The position numbers were made by a program, and so were the translations under genes. Positions 56,465 through 64,000 of a stretch of 64,000 nt of DNA are shown here, one piece after another (position 1 is the stretch's first letter; the number at the start of each line of letters is the position of its first letter). Under the pieces are notes generated by a model. It had not been told where the DNA came from. It saw only the letters and a list, made by a program, of their open reading frames with translations, and made no database searches. Source of the stretch: Candidatus Limnocylindrales bacterium (GTDB lineage: Bacteria; Chloroflexota; Limnocylindria; Limnocylindrales; CSP1-4); contig JBEKCH010000007.1 of assembly GCA_050014975.1 (NCBI GenBank), positions 3,785 through 67,784 of the forward strand, given 5' to 3'.

Positions 56465-56540
56465 TGGAGCGGGAGACGGGATTCGAACCCGCGACATTCT
56501 GCTTGGGAAGCAGACACTCTGCCAGCTGAGTTACTCCCGC
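56465..56540 (-). tRNA. tRNA-Gly (anticodon CCC), CCA encoded
   Basis: The minus-strand 76-mer is GCGGGAGTAACTCAGCTGGCAGAGTGTCTGCTTCCCAAGCAGAATGTCGCGGGTTCGAATCCCGTCTCCCGCTCCA. It folds as a cloverleaf with a 7-bp acceptor stem, anticodon loop TTCCCAA and T-loop TTCGAAT. Confidence 0.9.
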
Positions 56541-56624: not shown

Positions 56625-56954
56625 TCAGGCCCGCTCGAACGCCATCGCAACGGAGCCACCTCCGCCGAGGCAGAGCGTGGCCATCGCATAGCGGCCAGCG
56701 CTACGGCGCAGCTCGTATAACAAAGTGGCGACGATGCGGGCGCCGCTCGCGCCGATTGGGTGGCCGAGCGCGATCGCGCCGCCGTTCACGTTAACCTTGC
56801 CGAAGTCGACACCGAGCGCTCGGCCGTCGGCGAGGACTTGGGCCGCGAAGGCCTCGTTGATCTCGATCAAGTCGAACGAATGGAGCGGGATCCCGGTCCT
56901 CGCGACGAGATTCTTCACGCCGGTCACGGGAGACATGCGGACCCAGCTCGACAC
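56625..56954 (-). pseudogene. C-terminal fragment of a thiolase (acetyl-CoA acetyltransferase) gene
   Basis: DLIEINEAFAAQVLA...VNVNGGAIALGHPIGASGARI...ATLCLGGGGSVAMAFE is the last roughly 100 aa of a roughly 390-aa thiolase. Nothing corresponding to the N-terminal three quarters is present. Confidence 0.75.
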
Positions 56955-58559: not shown

Positions 58560-58802
58560 ATGTCCGAAACTGTAAGCGCGGAAGCACGGCTCCGCGCGCG
58601 GAACCAGCTCACAATCCCGGACCCGATCGTGCGGGCCGCGGGGATCGAGCCCGGGGAGAAGTTCGTTGTTGAACTCGAACCAGACGATCAAGACACTGTT
58701 CTGCTTCGGCGTGTTCGGAACAGCTACGCCGGTTCTCTGCCAGGTCTTTGGGGACCGGATACCAAGACCTACCTCGAGGGCGAACGCGCGTCCTGGGGCT
58801 AA
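58560..58802 (+). CDS. vapB: AbrB/SpoVT/MazE-fold antitoxin
   Basis: Has the RNQLTIPDPIVRAAGIEPGEKFVVE swapped-hairpin motif. 80 aa, directly upstream of a PIN gene. Confidence 0.7.
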   Translation: MSETVSAEARLRARNQLTIPDPIVRAAGIEPGEKFVVELEPDDQDTVLLRRVRNSYAGSLPGLWGPDTKTYLEGERASWG

Positions 58803-58805
58803 GCC

Positions 58806-59279
58806 ATGAGCAGGTCCTCCCTTGAGGCCGCGATTCCTCGTGGCGCTCAGATCCTGCTGGATACTTCCGTCGTCCTGGCGTATTTCGACGGTCGTGAGGC
58901 GATCAGTCCGGCGGCAACGCTGGTCATCGACGAATTCGTCAACAGCGGCCGTAACCCCGGGAGGATCAGCGCCGTGACTGTTGGCGAAACCCTGGTCCGT
59001 CCTATGAAAGCCGGTCAGGCGGCCGTGAACGTGGTCGAGTCGTTCCTGCTCCATTTCCCGAACCTGTCCGTGACGGTGGTGGATTACGGAGTCGCCCGCG
59101 AGGCGGCGCGCCTTCGTGCGGCGACCGGGCTCAAGACCCCCGACTCCCTGATCATCGCCTCGGCACTCGACGGTATCACCTCGGTCGTGGTAACAAATGA
59201 CGAGCGGTGGGCCGGCGCCATGGCGAAGGCCGCGCCGGGCCTGACTCTCTGCCATCTAGACGCCCACGTTCCACTCTAG
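58806..59279 (+). CDS. vapC: PIN-domain ribonuclease toxin
   Basis: Has ILLDTSVVLAY (first acidic residue), ...TPDSLIIASAL... and ...VVTNDERW, typical of PIN proteins. 157 aa. Confidence 0.7.
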   Translation: MSRSSLEAAIPRGAQILLDTSVVLAYFDGREAISPAATLVIDEFVNSGRNPGRISAVTVGETLVRPMKAGQAAVNVVESFLLHFPNLSVTVVDYGVAREAARLRAATGLKTPDSLIIASALDGITSVVVTNDERWAGAMAKAAPGLTLCHLDAHVPL

Positions 59280-59406
59280 GGGCGTCGGGGTCGGAGACCC
59301 AGATTCGTCGGGCGCCAGCCCCTCCAAGGGCCACGAGCGACAGCGTATAACTGGGTCGAAATGGAGCGGTCGCCACGAGGGGAGCGATGGCTCCGGGAGG
59401 CTCAGA

Positions 59407-59480
59407 CTTGGGAAGCAGACACTCTGCCAGCTGAGTTACTCCCGCTCGCGGAGCAGGGGTAGTTATAGCAGATCGAGCGG
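59407..59480. repeat. direct repeat copy B: orphan 5' half of tRNA-Gly plus upstream flank
   Basis: Matches tRNA positions 1-39 exactly, and identity stops at the 3' edge of the anticodon loop. The flank tcgcggagcaggggtagttatagcagatcgagcgg parallels 56541-56573, including a TATAAC (minus strand) -10-like hexamer. No 3' half is present. Confidence 0.85.
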
Positions 59481-59938
59481 TTCAACCTATCGACTTACCG
59501 ACCCGAGGAGTCCTCCCAGTCGGGGGCCGCCTATGCAGCTCACAACGGGACGGCTTCCAACCCAGTCTGGTCGGGCAATCTCGTTCGTCATCGGCTCAAC
59601 CGCGGTCGGCTCAATGTCGCCGGTTCGCTGTCACGCAGATCCGTTGTCCGGGACCCGGACAGGCGTACGTTGCCAAACGCCAAGCCGCCGCCGACACGAC
59701 GACCGAGGCCATCCGAGCGCTGCGTCGACCCCTCAGCGACGAGTTGTTCCGTCGTCTCCAGACCGATGAGGCTGCTCGAGCCCGCATCGGAGACGCTGCC
59801 CGAGCCGCTGCTTGACACAGGGGCAACACGTCGTTCGGCGGTCGTTCGCTTTGAGCGAGTCAGAGCTTTTGTCAAGTGGAGATAAACGGGCCGTTGACCG
59901 CGGCTAGACTGCGGCCAGCGCTGTAGCATGGAGGAGCC

Positions 59939-62053
59939 ATGGAGACCGGAAGTCTGATTGGACGAGTCGGGACGCGGATCGATGCCGACGACCTGTCGGC
60001 GGAGTTGGTCGCTGCCTCAGCGAAGCTCATGGCGCTCATCGAGCCAGCGGCATACGTGGGCGAGGTCTATTCCATCGGGTACGACGAGGCGTTAGTCCAG
60101 ATCCACGATTTCAACCGTCAGCAGGTCGGGGGAATTCCAGCTCTTTCATTCCTGGTCGCCACTCGTGTCGACCCGGCCCTAACGTCCGATGTCAGAACGG
60201 AGGATGCGTCCGTCCTGCTCCTTCGTGTCTTGGACAAAGCCGACTTGCCCAACGCCCAGGAAGCGCTCAGGGTACGTGTTGAGACCGCCCAGCGAGTCAG
60301 TGGGGAAACTAACAAGCGTTGGGATGATCGTGAGGTCATGGATCCCACCACCCATCACTTGCTCAGCTTCGCTGGTGTCAAGTGTCGGGTCCTTGGAACG
60401 TTCTATGTGGCGGAGGTGGAAGGTCAGCCGTCCTCGGCTTACGCCCTTCACTTCGGATCTGACATCAGCAACTACTACCCGAACCGTGGGCTGAAGGTCT
60501 TCAAGCCGCGCGGAGATGCATTATCGGAAATCGTTAACTTTCGAGACCCATCCCGTCCCGACGCTGTATCCAAGCATCTTGTGCGGATTGGTGGAGTTCG
60601 CTACGCGTCGACGAATCGGGCGTTCCAGAGAGTCAGCGACGTGCAGGTCGCCATCACACCAACGGATCTCTTGGGCCAAAAGACTGCGCTGTTCGGGATG
60701 ACCCGGACCGGCAAGTCCAACACCACGAAGATCATTCTGACCTCCGTTTTCGCCCTGCGGTGGTCCGCGGATCCGGTGCGGGTGGGTCAGATCGTTTTCG
60801 ACCCTAATGGTGAGTATGCGAATGAGAACCCACAGGATCTAGACAACAAGAGGAACCCGAACGCCATCAAGAATGTGTGGGCAGTTGGGCCGCTCGCTGA
60901 TCACGCCCAGCTTGCCGAAGACGTCATTACCTACGGCATTACACGTCACCCTAACGACCCGAATCGACGCCTGATGCTCCTCAACTTCTTCCTGGATGAG
61001 AACCTGGAGATCGGCAAGCAGATCGTCGATGCGGCTCTCTCCGGCGACAGCAGCAAGTACCTTGCGAACTTCCGGGACGTCAGGCTAGAGCCGCCTGACC
61101 CGGCGGACATATCCGCAATGACACGACACAAGAGACGGGTTCTGGCGTACCGATCCCTTCTCTTCCAAGCGGGTCTGGTTCCCCCTGCCAGCCTCTCACC
61201 CATGACGAAAGGCCTCTTCAACCAGGGGCTGATCAACGCCCTGCTCGCATCTCCCGGATACGCGGTCGCGGGGACGATGCTGGGCAAGCCCAACCCGACT
61301 TGGTCTGAGATCGCCACGTCAATGAAGATTCTTCGCGAGTTCATAGACGATCCGAACTCAGGGTTCGTCCAGTTCAATCAAACTTACGTTGGCTCCAGTT
61401 CATCGGGATCATGGGCTGACGACGACCTCCGGAAGATTCTCGGCATGTTTCAGTACGCCAATGGCTCGAGACTCGTGGGCCGGGTGCGACCGCAACACAC
61501 AAACTCGACGACCATAGACTTCGCCGAGGAGATCTACGACGAGCTGGAGCGCGGCAAGCTCGTGATCATCGACCAGTCCGGGGGTGATCCTGAGCTGAAC
61601 AAGGGTTCGGCGGACCGCGTTATCAAGCGCGTGTTTGAGCGTAGCCAAGAGCGGTTCCGTAACGCTGAGGAGCCACCAGATATCCTCGTCTATGTGGAGG
61701 AGGCACATAACATCCTTCCATCATCGAAGGAGCTTGACCTCCAAGACATATGGGTGCGCACCGCGAAGGAAGGGGCCAAATACCGCATTGGGTTGGTTTA
61801 CGCGACCCAGGAGGTGAGCTCGATTCAGCGTAACATCCTGCGGAACACGGCGAATTGGTTCATCGGACATCTGAACAATACCGACGAGACTCGAGAACTC
61901 AATAAGTTCTACGATTTTGCGGACTTCGAAGGGAGCATTCTCCGGGCCCAAGATAGAGGATTTGTTCGAATGAAGACGCTTTCGAACCCGTTCGTGGTCC
62001 CGGTCCAGGTCGAGCGTTTCTCCATCGAGTCCCCGCCCTCGCTGGATGACTGA
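59939..62053 (+). CDS. herA: HerA/FtsK-class hexameric ATPase (DUF87-type)
   Basis: Has an N-terminal HAS-barrel-like segment ([19 protein letters not shown]...[10 protein letters not shown]), Walker [15 protein letters not shown] and Walker [14 protein letters not shown]. The block [21 protein letters not shown]...NWFIGHLNN is typical of HerA. GGAGGAG lies upstream of the ATG. Confidence 0.8.
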
Positions 62054-63408
62054 TGCCATACGAAGGTGAGTTCGCAAGCTACAGGCCGCTCCGCAGGATT
62101 GTCGAGTCCGAGGGCGTGCAGAAGTTGCTCCGTCTGTCGCGTGTCCGGAAGCGTGAAGACACCCGCGCGTCGGTCACACCTGCGTTGGCCCCACCGCCGG
62201 GCAGACTACCCGGCTTGGTGATCGCGATCGACGGAAGCAATGCGGAGGTCGATGTCCAGACCGGATACCCGGGCGCGAAGATTGGCTACTGCACGGTGGC
62301 CAGCGTCCTGGTCGACTTGGAGTTGCTTGAAACGCTCGACGAGCACCGTCCTGTAGACCCGATCCGATTCCGGACCGTGGAGCAGGCGGCATCGATCGAT
62401 GCAGCCCTGCCCGGCAGTAATGTGGTAACACGCACGCTCGACTCAGCTCGCGAATCCTTCCGGCAGACACTTCACGAAGTACTGAGCGACGCCGTCGTCG
62501 ACGAGCAGGATCGTACGCCACTTCTGACGACATACGAAGAATTGCTGGCGTGGAAGCCGGCAGGTCAATTCGGCGGTCAGGCGTGCCCGTATGAACTTGA
62601 GCTGGGATGCCAGCAACGGCTGAGCGTCCGACCTGGAACAACATCCTGCAGTTGCGCACGCTCCCGGGCGATCTTCTCGACGGACGCTCTTCGCATTCAC
62701 GAGGCCTTCCGGGACCAGGGCACGAATGGAGAAGCGCTCGGTGAAGTAATGCAGGTGTGGGAGCGCCTCTTTTTGGTGCACCTCTTGAGGTGCTTCGAAA
62801 GAAGAGCGTTGCTAGGCCGAATCGATCGGGTCGCATTCGTGTTGGATGGTCCGCTTGCTGTCTTCGGTCATCCCGCCTGGCTGAGCGCGGCGATCAGCTC
62901 TGAGCTGAAGCGAATCAACGTGCAAGTGCGGGAGAAGACCGGACGTGATCTTCTCTTGATCGGGGTCGAGAAGACTGGGACATTTGTTTCGCACTTTGAT
63001 GATCTCGACCAGCGGGACGAGTCCGGCACGACTCTCTTCGACCCGCGAAGTGTCTTCATGCCCGATGACCAGTACATCAAGTCAAACATCGTCTTTAGCA
63101 CAAGTCCAAAGCGCTACGGTCTCGATACCTACTTTGGCCGGAAGGTCTTCTACAAGACCCTGTCCGGTGCGCGGCTCGTCGTCGACATTCCATTCCTGAA
63201 CGACGAGCAGGACAGCCTAGCGAGCAGCGACCTGGAGCCATACTCGGAGATTGGGACGGTCTGCGGGCTCCTCGATAGGCTCGTGTCGTCCAGATATCCG
63301 AACGCTCTGACCTCGCTGGTATCGGCGAATGCTCAAGCTGCGATCCCACTCAATCTCGGCGGTAAGGTATTGGAGCAACTTGCACGAGCCTTGATGCGCC
63401 ATGACTGA
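62053..63408 (+). CDS. nurA: NurA-domain nuclease
   Basis: Has LVIAIDGSNAEVD (catalytic Asp motif), FVLDGPLAVFG and LLLIGVEKTGTFV, matching the NurA IDGS / DGxL / GxxK pattern. The start overlaps the herA stop (TGATG). Confidence 0.7.
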   Translation: MPYEGEFASYRPLRRIVESEGVQKLLRLSRVRKREDTRASVTPALAPPPGRLPGLVIAIDGSNAEVDVQTGYPGAKIGYCTVASVLVDLELLETLDEHRPVDPIRFRTVEQAASIDAALPGSNVVTRTLDSARESFRQTLHEVLSDAVVDEQDRTPLLTTYEELLAWKPAGQFGGQACPYELELGCQQRLSVRPGTTSCSCARSRAIFSTDALRIHEAFRDQGTNGEALGEVMQVWERLFLVHLLRCFERRALLGRIDRVAFVLDGPLAVFGHPAWLSAAISSELKRINVQVREKTGRDLLLIGVEKTGTFVSHFDDLDQRDESGTTLFDPRSVFMPDDQYIKSNIVFSTSPKRYGLDTYFGRKVFYKTLSGARLVVDIPFLNDEQDSLASSDLEPYSEIGTVCGLLDRLVSSRYPNALTSLVSANAQAAIPLNLGGKVLEQLARALMRHD

Positions 63409-64000
63409 CACCCGCAGCTACGGTACGGCCGCCGAGCGCTGGTCGGGCGTGGGACCCTACTATGCGATGTTTCCCGTGTCCTTTGCCGACACGGTGATTG
63501 GCGAATACACGGAGTCAGGGGAAACGGTTCTCGACCCGTTCGCAGGACGGGGAACGGCTCCGTTCAGCGCCGCCACGCTAGGTCGAGTGGGTCTCGGCAT
63601 AGAAGTTAACCCGGTCGGATGGGTCTATGGGGCCACCAAGCTGCACCCGGCAGCCGAAGCAGACGTCGTGGCGAGGCTCGTCGAGATCTCAAAGGAGCGG
63701 TATCGGTTTCGCCTTGCCGCCCGACGGCTCCCAGAGTTCTTTCAGGACTGCTTCGATCCGGGTGTTCTCTCGTTCCTCCTTGCGGCTCGGAAGTCGTTGG
63801 AATGGCGGAGGCTCAGCGTCGATCGGACATTGGCAGCCCTGCTTCTCGTATACCTCCACGGAAAGCGCGGCTTCGCCCTCTCTAATCAGATGCGCCAGAC
63901 GAAGGCGATGGCGCCGAATTACTCGATTGGCTGGTGGCGTAAACGTGGATTGAGGCCTCCGGCCGTGGATCCGGTCGAATTCCTGGAGCCACGCATCAGA
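63401..64000 (+). CDS. DNA methyltransferase-like protein (N4/N6 family AdoMet-binding block), 3' end outside the window
   Basis: This ORF is not in the supplied track because it runs off the window end. My translation of frame 2 from the ATG at 63401 is MTDTRSYGTAAERWSGVGPYYAMFPVSFADTVIGEYTESGETVLDPFAGRGTAPFSAATLGRVGLGIEVNP.... It resembles the ...FP..L....I...T..GD.VLDPFxGSGTT..AA..LGR..IGIE block. It overlaps the nurA stop by 8 nt. Confidence 0.6.
   Translation, partial: MTDTRSYGTAAERWSGVGPYYAMFPVSFADTVIGEYTESGETVLDPFAGRGTAPFSAATLGRVGLGIEVNPVGWVYGATKLHPAAEADVVARLVEISKERYRFRLAARRLPEFFQDCFDPGVLSFLLAARKSLEWRRLSVDRTLAALLLVYLHGKRGFALSNQMRQTKAMAPNYSIGWWRKRGLRPPAVDPVEFLEPRIR

Follow-up and report, generated by a model that had tools for sequence, protein, structure and literature searches.

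TdpABC is reportedly a phosphorothioate (PT)-based restriction-modification (R-M) system of thermophiles, described by An et al. in 2025 (Nat Chem Biol). The PT is said in the same work to stall or exclude TdpAB. The PDB entries of this system are 8wet, 8wfd and 8y1k. Tdp is also cited elsewhere as a PT-based R-M system (PMC12914056). In Thermus thermophilus, the tdtA operon of ICETh1 comprises TthHB27I/Tth111II, the NurA-like TTC1878, TdtA (TTC1879) and the methylase TTC1880. The NurA, TdtA and methylase of this operon have been assigned to DNA donation (transjugation), with minor effects of the methylase (PMC5365140, PMC7767461 for both statements). Here, we analyzed a stretch of 64,000 nucleotides (the window) from Candidatus Limnocylindrales bacterium. 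A sequence-only reading had proposed that three genes at its end form an R-M-like system built on HerA and NurA.

Results

The three genes, referred to below as the cassette, and the features next to them are as follows.

56465..56540, minus strand: tRNA-Gly(ccc), intact, on the inner border of the accessory region (ARAGORN)
58560..59279, plus strand: toxin-antitoxin-like gene pair, an 80-aa ORF and a PIN VapC-like gene (Pfam PIN, 1.8e-14)
59407..59447, minus strand: 5' half of tRNA-Gly(ccc) through the anticodon loop, an exact 41-nt copy (alignment with the intact tRNA)
59939..62053, plus strand: HerA/FtsK-class hexameric ATPase, TdpA-like, 704 aa (Pfam, PADLOC, PDB sequence match)
62053..63408, plus strand: NurA-family (RNase H-like) nuclease, TdpB-like, 451 aa (Pfam, AF2 and Foldseek)
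63401..64000, plus strand: DNA amino-methyltransferase, PF01555 by sequence, codons 1-200 of 365 (Pfam, PADLOC, AF2)

The three ORFs are as tightly packed as had been described. By direct reading of the sequence, the HerA stop and the NurA start overlap in TGATG at 62051-62055, and the NurA stop and the methyltransferase start overlap by 8 nt, ATGACTGA at 63401-63408. The identical contigs L001-L006 supply the complete methyltransferase of 365 aa, which ends about 498 nt beyond the window. The suggestion that the operon gains more components past this point did not hold: no fourth component was conserved across 68 genomes (more than 12 phyla) and 80 metagenome contigs. Judging by their relatives in many phyla, with 55-68% identity, all three genes are real.

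The G+C content of the cassette region is 0.57-0.61 versus 0.69-0.74 upstream. Together with this drop, the tRNA gene, the 41-nt tRNA fragment and the PIN (VapC-type) gene at 58806-59279 were all found, in agreement with the earlier description of a low-G+C setting adjacent to a tRNA and vapBC. The 41-nt copy, which separates the cassette from the vapBC segment, marks a scar of integration or rearrangement. The same two toxin-antitoxin-like genes were called in L001-L003; the pair is context and lies outside the cassette.

HerA matched the Pfam DUF87/HerA (2.3e-10) and PADLOC HerA (1.6e-17) profiles. Its Walker A GMTRTGKS (motif block aa 253-262), VYVEEAH with the Walker B VEEAH (584-590) and RIGLVYATQ (616-624) are invariant in 48 orthologues. 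In the PDB sequence search, the top match was TdpA (8wet_A), which scored 1.9e-18 when the single sequence was the query and 1.6e-25 when the family profile was; the runner-up gave 6e-13 and the canonical HerA 4d2i gave 5e-7. The NCBIfam HerA equivalog was matched with 35 bits, far under its 970-bit cutoff. The top NCBIfam match was the DNA-translocating ATPase CedD, weak and also far under the cutoff. A HAS-barrel at the N-terminus of HerA had no Pfam match.

The Pfam NurA profile covered the whole length of the second protein (residues 55-429; 2.5e-6, 27.6 bits against a cutoff of 21). This protein carries AIDGS (58-62), LDGPL (264-268) and GVEKTG (304-309), as well as an insert with a four-Cys cluster (C178, C186, C199, C201). 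Residues D60, D265, E306 and H314 and the cluster cysteines are invariant or nearly so among orthologues. Relatives are annotated by NCBI as 'DNA double-strand break repair nuclease NurA'. The NurA family profile had no sequence match whatever in the PDB, and no NurA model of PADLOC matched this protein. Using Foldseek with the AF2 model (pLDDT 78, pTM 0.82), we found that the top PDB match was the TdpB chain 8wfd_G (6.8e-7, TM 0.43/0.51), which comes from the TdpAB-DNA complex and ranks above four bona fide NurA structures, which came next. Among solved structures, the nearest relatives of HerA and NurA are thus the two components of TdpAB.

The part of the methyltransferase within the window matched Pfam N6_N4_Mtase (3.2e-8), and the full-length protein matched Pfam with 2.4e-11 and PADLOC MTase_II with 4.5e-19. 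The motifs VLDPFAGRGT (43-52), LGRVGLGIE (60-68) and SPPY (aa 241-244) do not vary among 55-57 orthologues. Since motif I (DPFAGRGT) comes before motif IV (SPPY), the topology is alpha/Dam-like; the best DNA-methyltransferase fold match of the AF2 model (pLDDT 88.7) was E. coli Dam. The SPPY motif suggests N4-cytosine as the product; N6-adenine is possible. The middle region, a putative target-recognition region, is conserved within the close family. Thus, profile or structure searches backed the families assigned to all three proteins, and every motif quoted for them in the sequence-only reading was found in the translations.

With the patterns used, the cassette gave 68 hits, scattered over many phyla, among 185,579 species genomes. 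The NurA-side survey found the triad, with unchanged gene order, in virtually all 68 loci, with identity of 53-68%. They belong to Acidobacteriota, Pseudomonadota, Myxococcota, Planctomycetota, Verrucomicrobiota, Actinomycetota, Chloroflexota, Spirochaetota, Patescibacteria and others. The flanks are unrelated between loci; the three genes alone are conserved, in fixed order. In the methyltransferase-side survey of 80 loci, L125 was the sole case in which both NurA and HerA were missing although there was enough sequence to accommodate them. The three genes correlate with one another in their pairwise identities (r 0.76-0.89, with 0.89 for methyltransferase versus NurA). The three-gene linkage is close to obligate on both sides of the survey, and the cassette is horizontally mobile. 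Its sporadic distribution is that of an accessory element, as had been supposed, and not of the core genome.

Many immediate neighbors of the cassettes are housekeeping genes. Others encode Type I R-M, DrmMI, BrxH, DndC, SngC, TmtA, HipA and PIN proteins. In Pyxidicoccus, the HEC-01A/B defence pair (4.6e-148 and 3.1e-69) is inserted between NurA and the methyltransferase. In a Vibrio prophage, the module lies between integrase and excisionase, and the same element carries Shedu and Gabija genes. A search of IMG/VR for the cassette found nothing.

Among 13 distant HerA-NurA branches sampled, the methyltransferase families proved interchangeable. A PF01555 enzyme is present in the Halorarius plasmid, the Deferribacter plasmid (in the order methyltransferase-HerA-NurA), Succinivibrio, L161, L164 and L168. 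L160 has a PF00145 C5 methyltransferase with overlapping stop and start, and the Sulfurimonas and Vibrio prophage loci have a convergently transcribed PF02086 Dam-type enzyme. The other four branches (cyanobacterial plasmids, L162/L163, L165 and L169) have no obvious methyltransferase; the cyanobacterial plasmid branch carries an exonuclease protein. HerA is repeatedly broken or deleted: it is interrupted by IS66 in L028, by a 2.8-kb insert in L036 and by IS200/605 in Deferribacter, is truncated at the N-terminus in L126 and is missing from L041 and L069. In L125, HerA and NurA are replaced, and the last NurA codons remain fused to another ORF. The methyltransferase was lost in no decayed locus, although these events are few and the asymmetry alone is not statistically significant.

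Discussion

The cassette is probably an R-M-like module that is based on methylation, serves defence (or selfish addiction) and uses a processive translocase-nuclease like TdpAB. The methyltransferase would mark host DNA. A HerA hexamer and a NurA dimer may form a translocase-nuclease complex resembling TdpAB, which would load onto DNA, pump it at the expense of ATP and degrade it processively. Marked self DNA would be spared by its methylation, and incoming unmarked DNA would be destroyed. By analogy with phosphorothioate and TdpAB, the methyl mark may stall or exclude the motor-nuclease; alternatively, the methyltransferase itself may be the sensing subunit. The HEC-01 insertion, the defence-gene neighbors and the Vibrio prophage element argue for such defence, as does the low-G+C island beside the PIN toxin gene, the intact tRNA gene and its 41-nt fragment. 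Further support comes from the kinship of HerA and NurA with TdpAB, from the conservation of just these three genes within unrelated flanks and from the exchange of unrelated methyltransferase families in distant branches. The decay that removes HerA and keeps the methyltransferase points the same way. Orphan methyltransferases are also left by classical R-M. Against the R-M reading stand the conserved middle region of the methyltransferase, where typical R-M diversifies specificity, the four of 13 distant branches with no obvious methyltransferase, the many housekeeping neighbors and the empty IMG/VR search. No methyl-reading or sequence-reading domain is recognizable in HerA or NurA, which also counts against it, as does the assignment to DNA donation of the one experimentally studied operon with like gene content, that of Thermus ICETh1. 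On balance, the computational results support the R-M-like reading of HerA-NurA with a methyltransferase, and none of them refutes it.

It seems rather unlikely that the cassette serves defence or conflict with methylation as something other than a plain self-mark, for example with the methyltransferase as a sensor or activator of the nuclease (BREX-like or Type III-like), with targeting of modified DNA or with abortive infection by degradation of the host chromosome. The coupling through the 8-nt overlap and the co-evolution with NurA fit a stoichiometric methyltransferase subunit, its putative target-recognition region is conserved, and SIR2-HerA and DUF4297-HerA use assembly-triggered effectors (PMC11472057, PMC11291478). 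However, the convergent Dam-type enzymes and the C5 replacement suggest that the mark itself matters and not one protein partner, and orphan methyltransferases outlive HerA and NurA. We also find it distinctly improbable that the cassette serves a mobile element for DNA donation or secretion in the manner of the 'DSS' of Thermus ICETh1, with the HerA-like ATPase exporting processed donor DNA. Transjugation in Thermus needs NurA and TdtA, the tdtA operon is equal in gene content, CedD is the top, if weak, NCBIfam match of HerA, and the cassette lies in mobile low-G+C DNA. Nevertheless, integrase, relaxase, secretion and competence genes and the type IIG enzyme are not conserved with the cassette, and its closest solved relatives form a restriction complex. 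The methylase has minor transfer effects in ICETh1, whereas here the methyltransferase is the gene most stably kept, and one methyltransferase family can stand in for another.

A housekeeping pair for double-strand-break end resection, with the methyltransferase as a mere neighbor, is hardly credible. HerA-NurA is the end-resection machine of archaea and Deinococcus, the NCBI name of the nuclease refers to repair, and its model matches bona fide NurA folds. But the pair is sporadic, with about 60% identity across many phyla, foreign G+C and unrelated flanks; Mre11/Rad50 linkage is absent, IS elements disrupt HerA, the equivalog score of HerA is far too low, and the methyltransferase partner is obligate.

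As the sequence-only reading had anticipated, neither the literature searches nor PADLOC gave a named equivalent of the HerA-NurA-methyltransferase architecture. The novelty is tempered, since TdpABC has the same motor-nuclease with another mark and the Thermus ICETh1 operon has already been studied (PMC5365140).

Like the cassette, TdpABC has three genes, for a hexameric ATPase of the HerA class, a nuclease with the NurA fold and a single enzyme that modifies DNA. TdpA and the window HerA share the blocks GKSN..K.ILT (Walker A), EEAHN (Walker B) and AKEG.KY.IG..Y.TQ, and the likeness is confined to the ATPase core. TdpC forms PT, whereas the cassette has a SAM-dependent base methyltransferase; its mark would lie in the major groove and not in the backbone, which means that it could not simply be sensed in the way PT is. 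The cassette proteins are larger than TdpAB (HerA, 704 versus 586 aa; NurA, 451 versus 358 aa, with the four-Cys insert), and they occur in mesophilic soil and freshwater bacteria instead of thermophiles. The likeness to ICETh1, by gene content alone, is a co-transcribed NurA-family nuclease, HerA/FtsK-class hexameric ATPase and PF01555 N4/N6 methylase; a mobile element inserted at a tRNA gene is also common to both. In ICETh1, the order is NurA-ATPase-methylase, a type IIG restriction-methylation enzyme is added, and the proteins are of 377 and 410 aa. Canonical HerA-NurA (Sulfolobus, Pyrococcus, Thermococcus, Deinococcus) shares both folds, the likely hexamer-dimer architecture and the ATP-driven threading of DNA into the nuclease, which is predicted for the cassette. 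Its sequence similarity to the cassette is weak for HerA and below detection in the PDB for the NurA profile, and the cassette differs in having no Mre11-Rad50 linkage, an obligate methyltransferase and a mobile, sporadic occurrence.

SIR2-HerA and DUF4297-HerA are also compact and mobile defence operons in which an effector accompanies a HerA-class ATPase, and PADLOC HerA models matched the cassette. Their effector is a NADase or Cap4-like nuclease instead of NurA, they have no modification enzyme and follow abortive-infection-type logic, and the window HerA is less similar to them than to TdpA. R-M types I-III, BREX, DISARM and MADS likewise link a DNA methyltransferase to ATP-dependent machinery acting on unmarked DNA, and classical R-M is also a mobile selfish unit. 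Unlike classical R-M, the cassette has no PD-(D/E)xK or HNH endonuclease, SF2 helicase or specificity subunit; unlike BREX and DISARM, it has no PglZ, BrxC or DrmA/B. MADS is an 8-gene operon, and the match of the cassette to mad8 is at the P-loop level only. In contrast to all of these, restriction by the cassette would rely on a ring-shaped translocase that feeds DNA to a nuclease with an RNase H fold. If the restriction reading is true, the cassette is an R-M-like system built on HerA-NurA, in which base methylation replaces the phosphorothioate mark.

The cassette genes and their island

For the right end of the window, the sequence-only reading had claimed three ORFs with overlapping stop and start codons, lying in DNA of lowered G+C close to a tRNA gene, a tRNA fragment and vapBC. 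These features are present, together with a thiolase fragment:

56465-56540, intact tRNA-Gly(ccc) gene
56625-56954, minus strand, thiolase C-terminal domain fragment (103-109 aa), directly beside the tRNA gene
58806-59279, PIN toxin gene
59407-59447, minus strand, exact 41-nt duplicate of the tRNA-Gly(ccc) 5' half, through the anticodon loop
59939-62053, plus strand, HerA-type ATPase ORF, 704 aa
62053-63408, plus strand, NurA ORF, 451 aa
63401 to the window end, plus strand, methyltransferase ORF, the start of a 365-aa protein

The overlaps TGATG and ATGACTGA can both be read in the sequence, and the three genes are translationally coupled in the window. A scan of 59280-64000 for promoters and terminators gave nothing above shuffled expectation. 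The G+C content falls from 0.69-0.74 to 0.57-0.61 at the island. The tRNA duplicate lies 2.9 kb from the intact gene, and the interval between them contains the thiolase fragment, a 262-aa unknown ORF, a MarR-like gene and a PIN toxin pair. The thiolase fragment is probably a truncated pseudogene resulting from the rearrangement that made the island. In the usual model of integration at tRNA genes, the 3'-end of the tRNA is involved. The repeat here is a 5' half and no integrase is present; as this does not fit a simple integrase model, the duplicate is taken only as a scar.

The three proteins

All sequence motifs that had been quoted for the three proteins are present, and the assignment to the HerA, NurA and methyltransferase families agrees with the profile searches (Pfam, PADLOC). 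The HerA core matches Pfam DUF87/HerA (2.3e-10) and twelve PADLOC HerA models (best 1.6e-17). The P-loop motifs of the HerA clade, Walker A GxxGxGKS/T and Walker B hhhh(D/E)EAH, are invariant across orthologues. No HAS-barrel domain was matched by Pfam in the window HerA at E<=1. The PDB matches of this protein are all HerA-class. The nearest solved structure is TdpA, the HerA-class ATPase of the phosphorothioate-based TdpABC system (1.9e-18 with the single sequence, 1.6e-25 with the family profile). With the family profile, TdpA is ahead of the next HerA (6e-13) by 12 orders of magnitude. Walker A, Walker B (EEAHN) and the C-terminal blocks are common to both proteins. The window HerA is predicted to form a hexameric DNA-translocating ring.

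Residues 55-429 of the second protein match Pfam NurA above the gathering score. D60, D265, E306 and H314 are invariant in the orthologues and would be the catalytic positions of the NurA fold. A four-Cys insert (C178, C186, C199, C201) is also invariant. The NurA has no matching model in PADLOC v2, and its family profile matched no PDB sequence, so a comparison of folds was required. The AF2 model (pLDDT 78, pTM 0.82) has as its top Foldseek match 8wfd_G (E 6.8e-7, TM 0.43/0.51), which is TdpB within the TdpAB-AMPPNP-DNA complex. It is followed by the NurA structures of Deinococcus, Pyrococcus, Thermococcus and Sulfolobus, with a probability of 0.87-1.00 over all these matches. There is no detectable sequence-level match to TdpB, and therefore the relationship of the two nucleases is distant.

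The third protein matches Pfam N6_N4_Mtase and many PADLOC Type II methyltransferase models; at full length it matches PF01555 in two stretches (2.4e-11). Motif I (DPFAGRGT, 45-52) lies near the N-terminus, ahead of motif IV (SPPY, 241-244), and both are invariant in orthologues. This motif order is permuted relative to ordinary PF01555 enzymes, in an alpha/Dam-like manner. The AF2 model is confident (pLDDT 88.7) and has a Rossmann methyltransferase fold, with E. coli Dam as the best match among DNA methyltransferases. We take the Ser in motif IV to suggest N4-cytosine as the predicted target base.

Conservation and mobility of the triad

Eleven public contigs encode a NurA identical to that of the window, and six of them were inspected past the window end. 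In these six, the methyltransferase is 365 aa long and stops about 498 nt beyond the window end; nothing conserved and no convincing ORF follows. The same six contigs were obtained from distinct samples and data sources (ENA, JGI, Logan), and all break about 390-440 bp after the stop. This last stretch, which is 12447-12886 of L001 (about 500-940 nt past the window end), ends with a short direct repeat, GGCCATG(A/T)(G/A)AAAGTCCCCAC, in two copies; the repeat has no copy elsewhere in the window. The shared break points to a multi-copy element, or to a strain-variable junction, shortly after the contig ends.

The family is large. A 90%-clustered protein collection contains more than 1,700 relatives of the NurA, and an exhaustive profile search gave 822 clusters of this type at 50% identity. 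Relatives were not found among IMG/VR viral contigs. Scanning one genome per species, we obtained 68 loci from more than 12 phyla, with 43-64% identity. A SAM-dependent methyltransferase is the product of the third gene in 64 of the 68 loci, as in the window. The order HerA-NurA-methyltransferase is kept, and tight, in essentially all 68. The sequence-only reading had suggested that the operon may have further components past the window. When every flanking ORF of the 68 loci was clustered all-against-all, only the three cassette genes recurred (in 61-66 loci); the next cluster reached 4 loci, and thus no fourth component was found. Loci that are close in one of the three genes tend to be close in the others (correlation of pairwise identities, r 0.76-0.89). 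The recurrence of the triad and these correlations therefore indicate a complete, co-inherited and horizontally mobile three-gene unit.

We also surveyed 80 metagenome contigs fetched on methyltransferase similarity alone. Among these, L125 alone offered enough space for NurA and HerA but contained neither. In another, L126, HerA lacks residues 1-221. The remaining shortfalls are consistent with short contigs or contig edges, although L108 and L109 missed the expectation only slightly. In L125 (4689-7095), the orphan methyltransferase follows an unrelated 431-aa ORF that has no Pfam match and ends in the last 10 residues of NurA (LARALMRKD; pattern LARALMRxD). This locus is a recombination scar with the methyltransferase left behind. 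A split DUF4238 gene lies upstream.

Several loci depart from the common arrangement. At the contig end of L037 (a Terriglobia MAG), a 191-aa PAPS-reductase/DndC-like ORF with an SGGKDS motif (186-761) lies 15 nt upstream of HerA, and PADLOC reports a DndC match among the neighbours. Such a fragment adjoins the cassette in this locus only; it may be what is left of a modification gene of the Dnd or Tdp type beside a methyltransferase-type cassette. In the distant branches L162 (2819-9647) and L163, HerA-NurA is followed by two co-oriented proteins of 466 and 529 aa, without a methyltransferase. Neither has a Pfam or PADLOC match, and they may be a different third component. A Tolypothrix plasmid (L075, 3626-10329) carries an HTH regulator, HerA, NurA, a 114-aa ORF and an 816-aa protein with a DEDDh exonuclease domain and a P-loop region, again without a methyltransferase. 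This variant is also found on Calothrix and Nostoc plasmids.

Evidence for restriction-modification logic

Modification and restriction genes are linked in this family and move as a unit through variable contexts or defence islands. In addition, though in small numbers, the modification enzyme is interchangeable, and the restriction genes decay first, leaving orphan methyltransferases. A methyltransferase is adjacent to HerA-NurA in 9 of the 13 sampled distant branches. In the distant long-NurA/HerA branches, three unrelated families occupy the third position. L160 has a PF00145 C5-cytosine methyltransferase with an overlapping stop and start; Sulfurimonas paralvinellae and a Vibrio prophage have a PF02086 Dam-type enzyme that is convergent and adjacent. 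PF01555 enzymes accompany HerA-NurA in Succinivibrio dextrinosolvens, in several metagenome contigs and on two plasmids, one from Halorarius and the other a Deferribacter megaplasmid.

At least seven loci have a lost or interrupted HerA or NurA, and none has a lost or interrupted methyltransferase. HerA is absent in L041 and L069; it is interrupted by IS66 in L028 and by a 2.8-kb insert in L036. The Deferribacter cassette and a second divided operon are as follows:

L158, 4946-11419, Deferribacter desulfuricans pDF308, order methyltransferase-HerA-NurA, HerA split by IS200/IS605 tnpA-tnpB
L016, 11362-15341, Pyxidicoccus sp. 3LFB2, HEC-01A/B pair between NurA and the methyltransferase, with small ORFs alongside

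On pDF308, an identical IS200/IS605 copy lies 6 kb away, and a HipA toxin gene is nearby. The asymmetry of decay is only suggestive of restriction-modification logic, because the cases are few and HerA offers a larger target.

In the Pyxidicoccus locus the operon is split by about 4 kb, and all three cassette genes are intact. HEC-01A is an AAA_21/OLD-like ATPase, HEC-01B is a DUF4276 protein, and the pair is a candidate defence system in PADLOC. The name HEC denotes candidates first found embedded in Hma defence operons. Among the matches listed, immediate neighbours of the cassette in other genomes include Type I R-M, DrmMI, BrxH, DndC, SngC, TmtA, HipA and PIN; ordinary housekeeping genes also occur there. 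In the Vibrio prophage, the module is flanked by integrase and excisionase, and Shedu and Gabija genes are part of the same element. The DefenseFinder-style notes of the submitters on this prophage flag only the methyltransferase of the module. Methyltransferase swaps, asymmetric decay, embedded defence genes and defence neighbours all point the same way, to restriction-modification logic.

Proposed mechanism and significance

The catalytic motifs of all three enzymes are kept across the family, and the motor-nuclease pair is similar to a complex with established DNA threading and cutting activity. HerA6-NurA2 would assemble, load onto DNA and degrade it processively. The methyltransferase would mark self DNA, and the methyl mark would keep it from degradation. 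There are two candidate readers of the mark: in NurA the four-Cys insert, and in HerA the long insertion (300-530) that separates the Walker motifs. We consider the chances about even that HerA-NurA-methyltransferase is a widespread unnamed R-M class. In such a class, a processive ring translocase would feed an RNase H-fold nuclease, not a site-specific endonuclease, and base methylation (m4C, m6A or m5C by lineage) would take the place of the backbone phosphorothioation of TdpABC. In a variant of this scheme, the methyltransferase may act as the sensor of a defence system, or the cassette may cause abortive infection. In the window family, the genes are tightly coupled and co-evolve, which would allow the methyltransferase to be a subunit. 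Since unrelated methyltransferases substitute for one another and some are convergently transcribed, we argue that the methyl mark matters rather than one particular protein partner.

The sequence-only reading gave no named system of this architecture, and our search of the full-text literature likewise found no paper describing a HerA-NurA-methyltransferase defence system. The PADLOC models searched do not recognise the gene set as a system. The cassette is not categorically new, because TdpABC has been published and the ICETh1 operon has been studied. It is a well-supported candidate for R-M-like defence; the family is sizeable and can be tested directly, since it has several cultured carriers. 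Candidate carriers of the triad include Succinivibrio dextrinosolvens (CP068345.1, about 399.6-404.2 kb), Planctomycetales bacterium 10988 (CP043547.1), Micromonospora sp. CPCC 205539 and Pyxidicoccus sp. 3LFB2, and Sulfurimonas paralvinellae (CP041406.1) has the Dam-type variant. If confirmed, the cassette would extend the Tdp-type restriction machinery, a recent discovery, by a branch based on methylation, and the HerA-NurA motor-nuclease would be a general restriction chassis used with at least four chemically different DNA marks. Genes now annotated as "DSB repair nuclease NurA", "DUF87" and "site-specific DNA methyltransferase" would receive a defence reading. The mechanistic question would then be how a ring translocase or an RNase H-fold nuclease senses base methylation. 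The R-M class outlined above would imply that methyl marks are read during translocation in a new manner.

Comparison with known systems

A canonical HerA-NurA module for double-strand break repair was rejected because of the sporadic cross-phylum distribution, foreign composition and variable flanks of the cassette. The IS disruptions, the lack of conserved neighbours and the scores of the window HerA against the NCBIfam HerA equivalogs (32-37 bits vs cutoffs of 800-970) also counter it. Membership in MADS was rejected too: the HerA P-loop gave no more than a partial match to mad8 (5.8e-14), and the cassette has three genes, whereas MADS is described as an eight-gene mad1-8 operon.

The Thermus thermophilus ICETh1 tdtA/DSS operon (TthHB27I, NurA-like TTC1878, TdtA TTC1879 and the PF01555 methylase TTC1880) equals the cassette in gene content at the level of Pfam families, as compared by published descriptions. 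It is genetically needed for DNA donation in transjugation (PMC5365140, PMC7767461), and for this reason we kept a role in DNA export among the explanations, as an improbable one by analogy. The cassette is not accompanied by genes for transfer or integration, or by type IIG genes; the clustered flanking ORFs of the 68 loci contain no conserved type IIG enzyme or integrase. Moreover, the nearest structures belong to a restriction complex, and the ICETh1 methylase is of little weight for transfer (PMC5365140, PMC7767461). If the restriction-modification reading is true, it invites the Thermus "transjugation" operon to be re-read as a member of the same class.

The closest likeness is to TdpABC. 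The window cassette encodes a TdpA-like HerA-class ATPase and, adjacently, a distantly TdpB-like nuclease. In the Tdp system, phosphorothioate on self DNA reportedly blocks translocation and cleavage by TdpAB. In contrast to TdpABC, the cassette has a methyltransferase where TdpC would be, and therefore it is not a Tdp system. TdpABC is listed as a third phosphorothioate-based R-M system, in which the single gene tdpC makes the mark (PMC12914056). By analogy, the window cassette plausibly works like a Tdp system.
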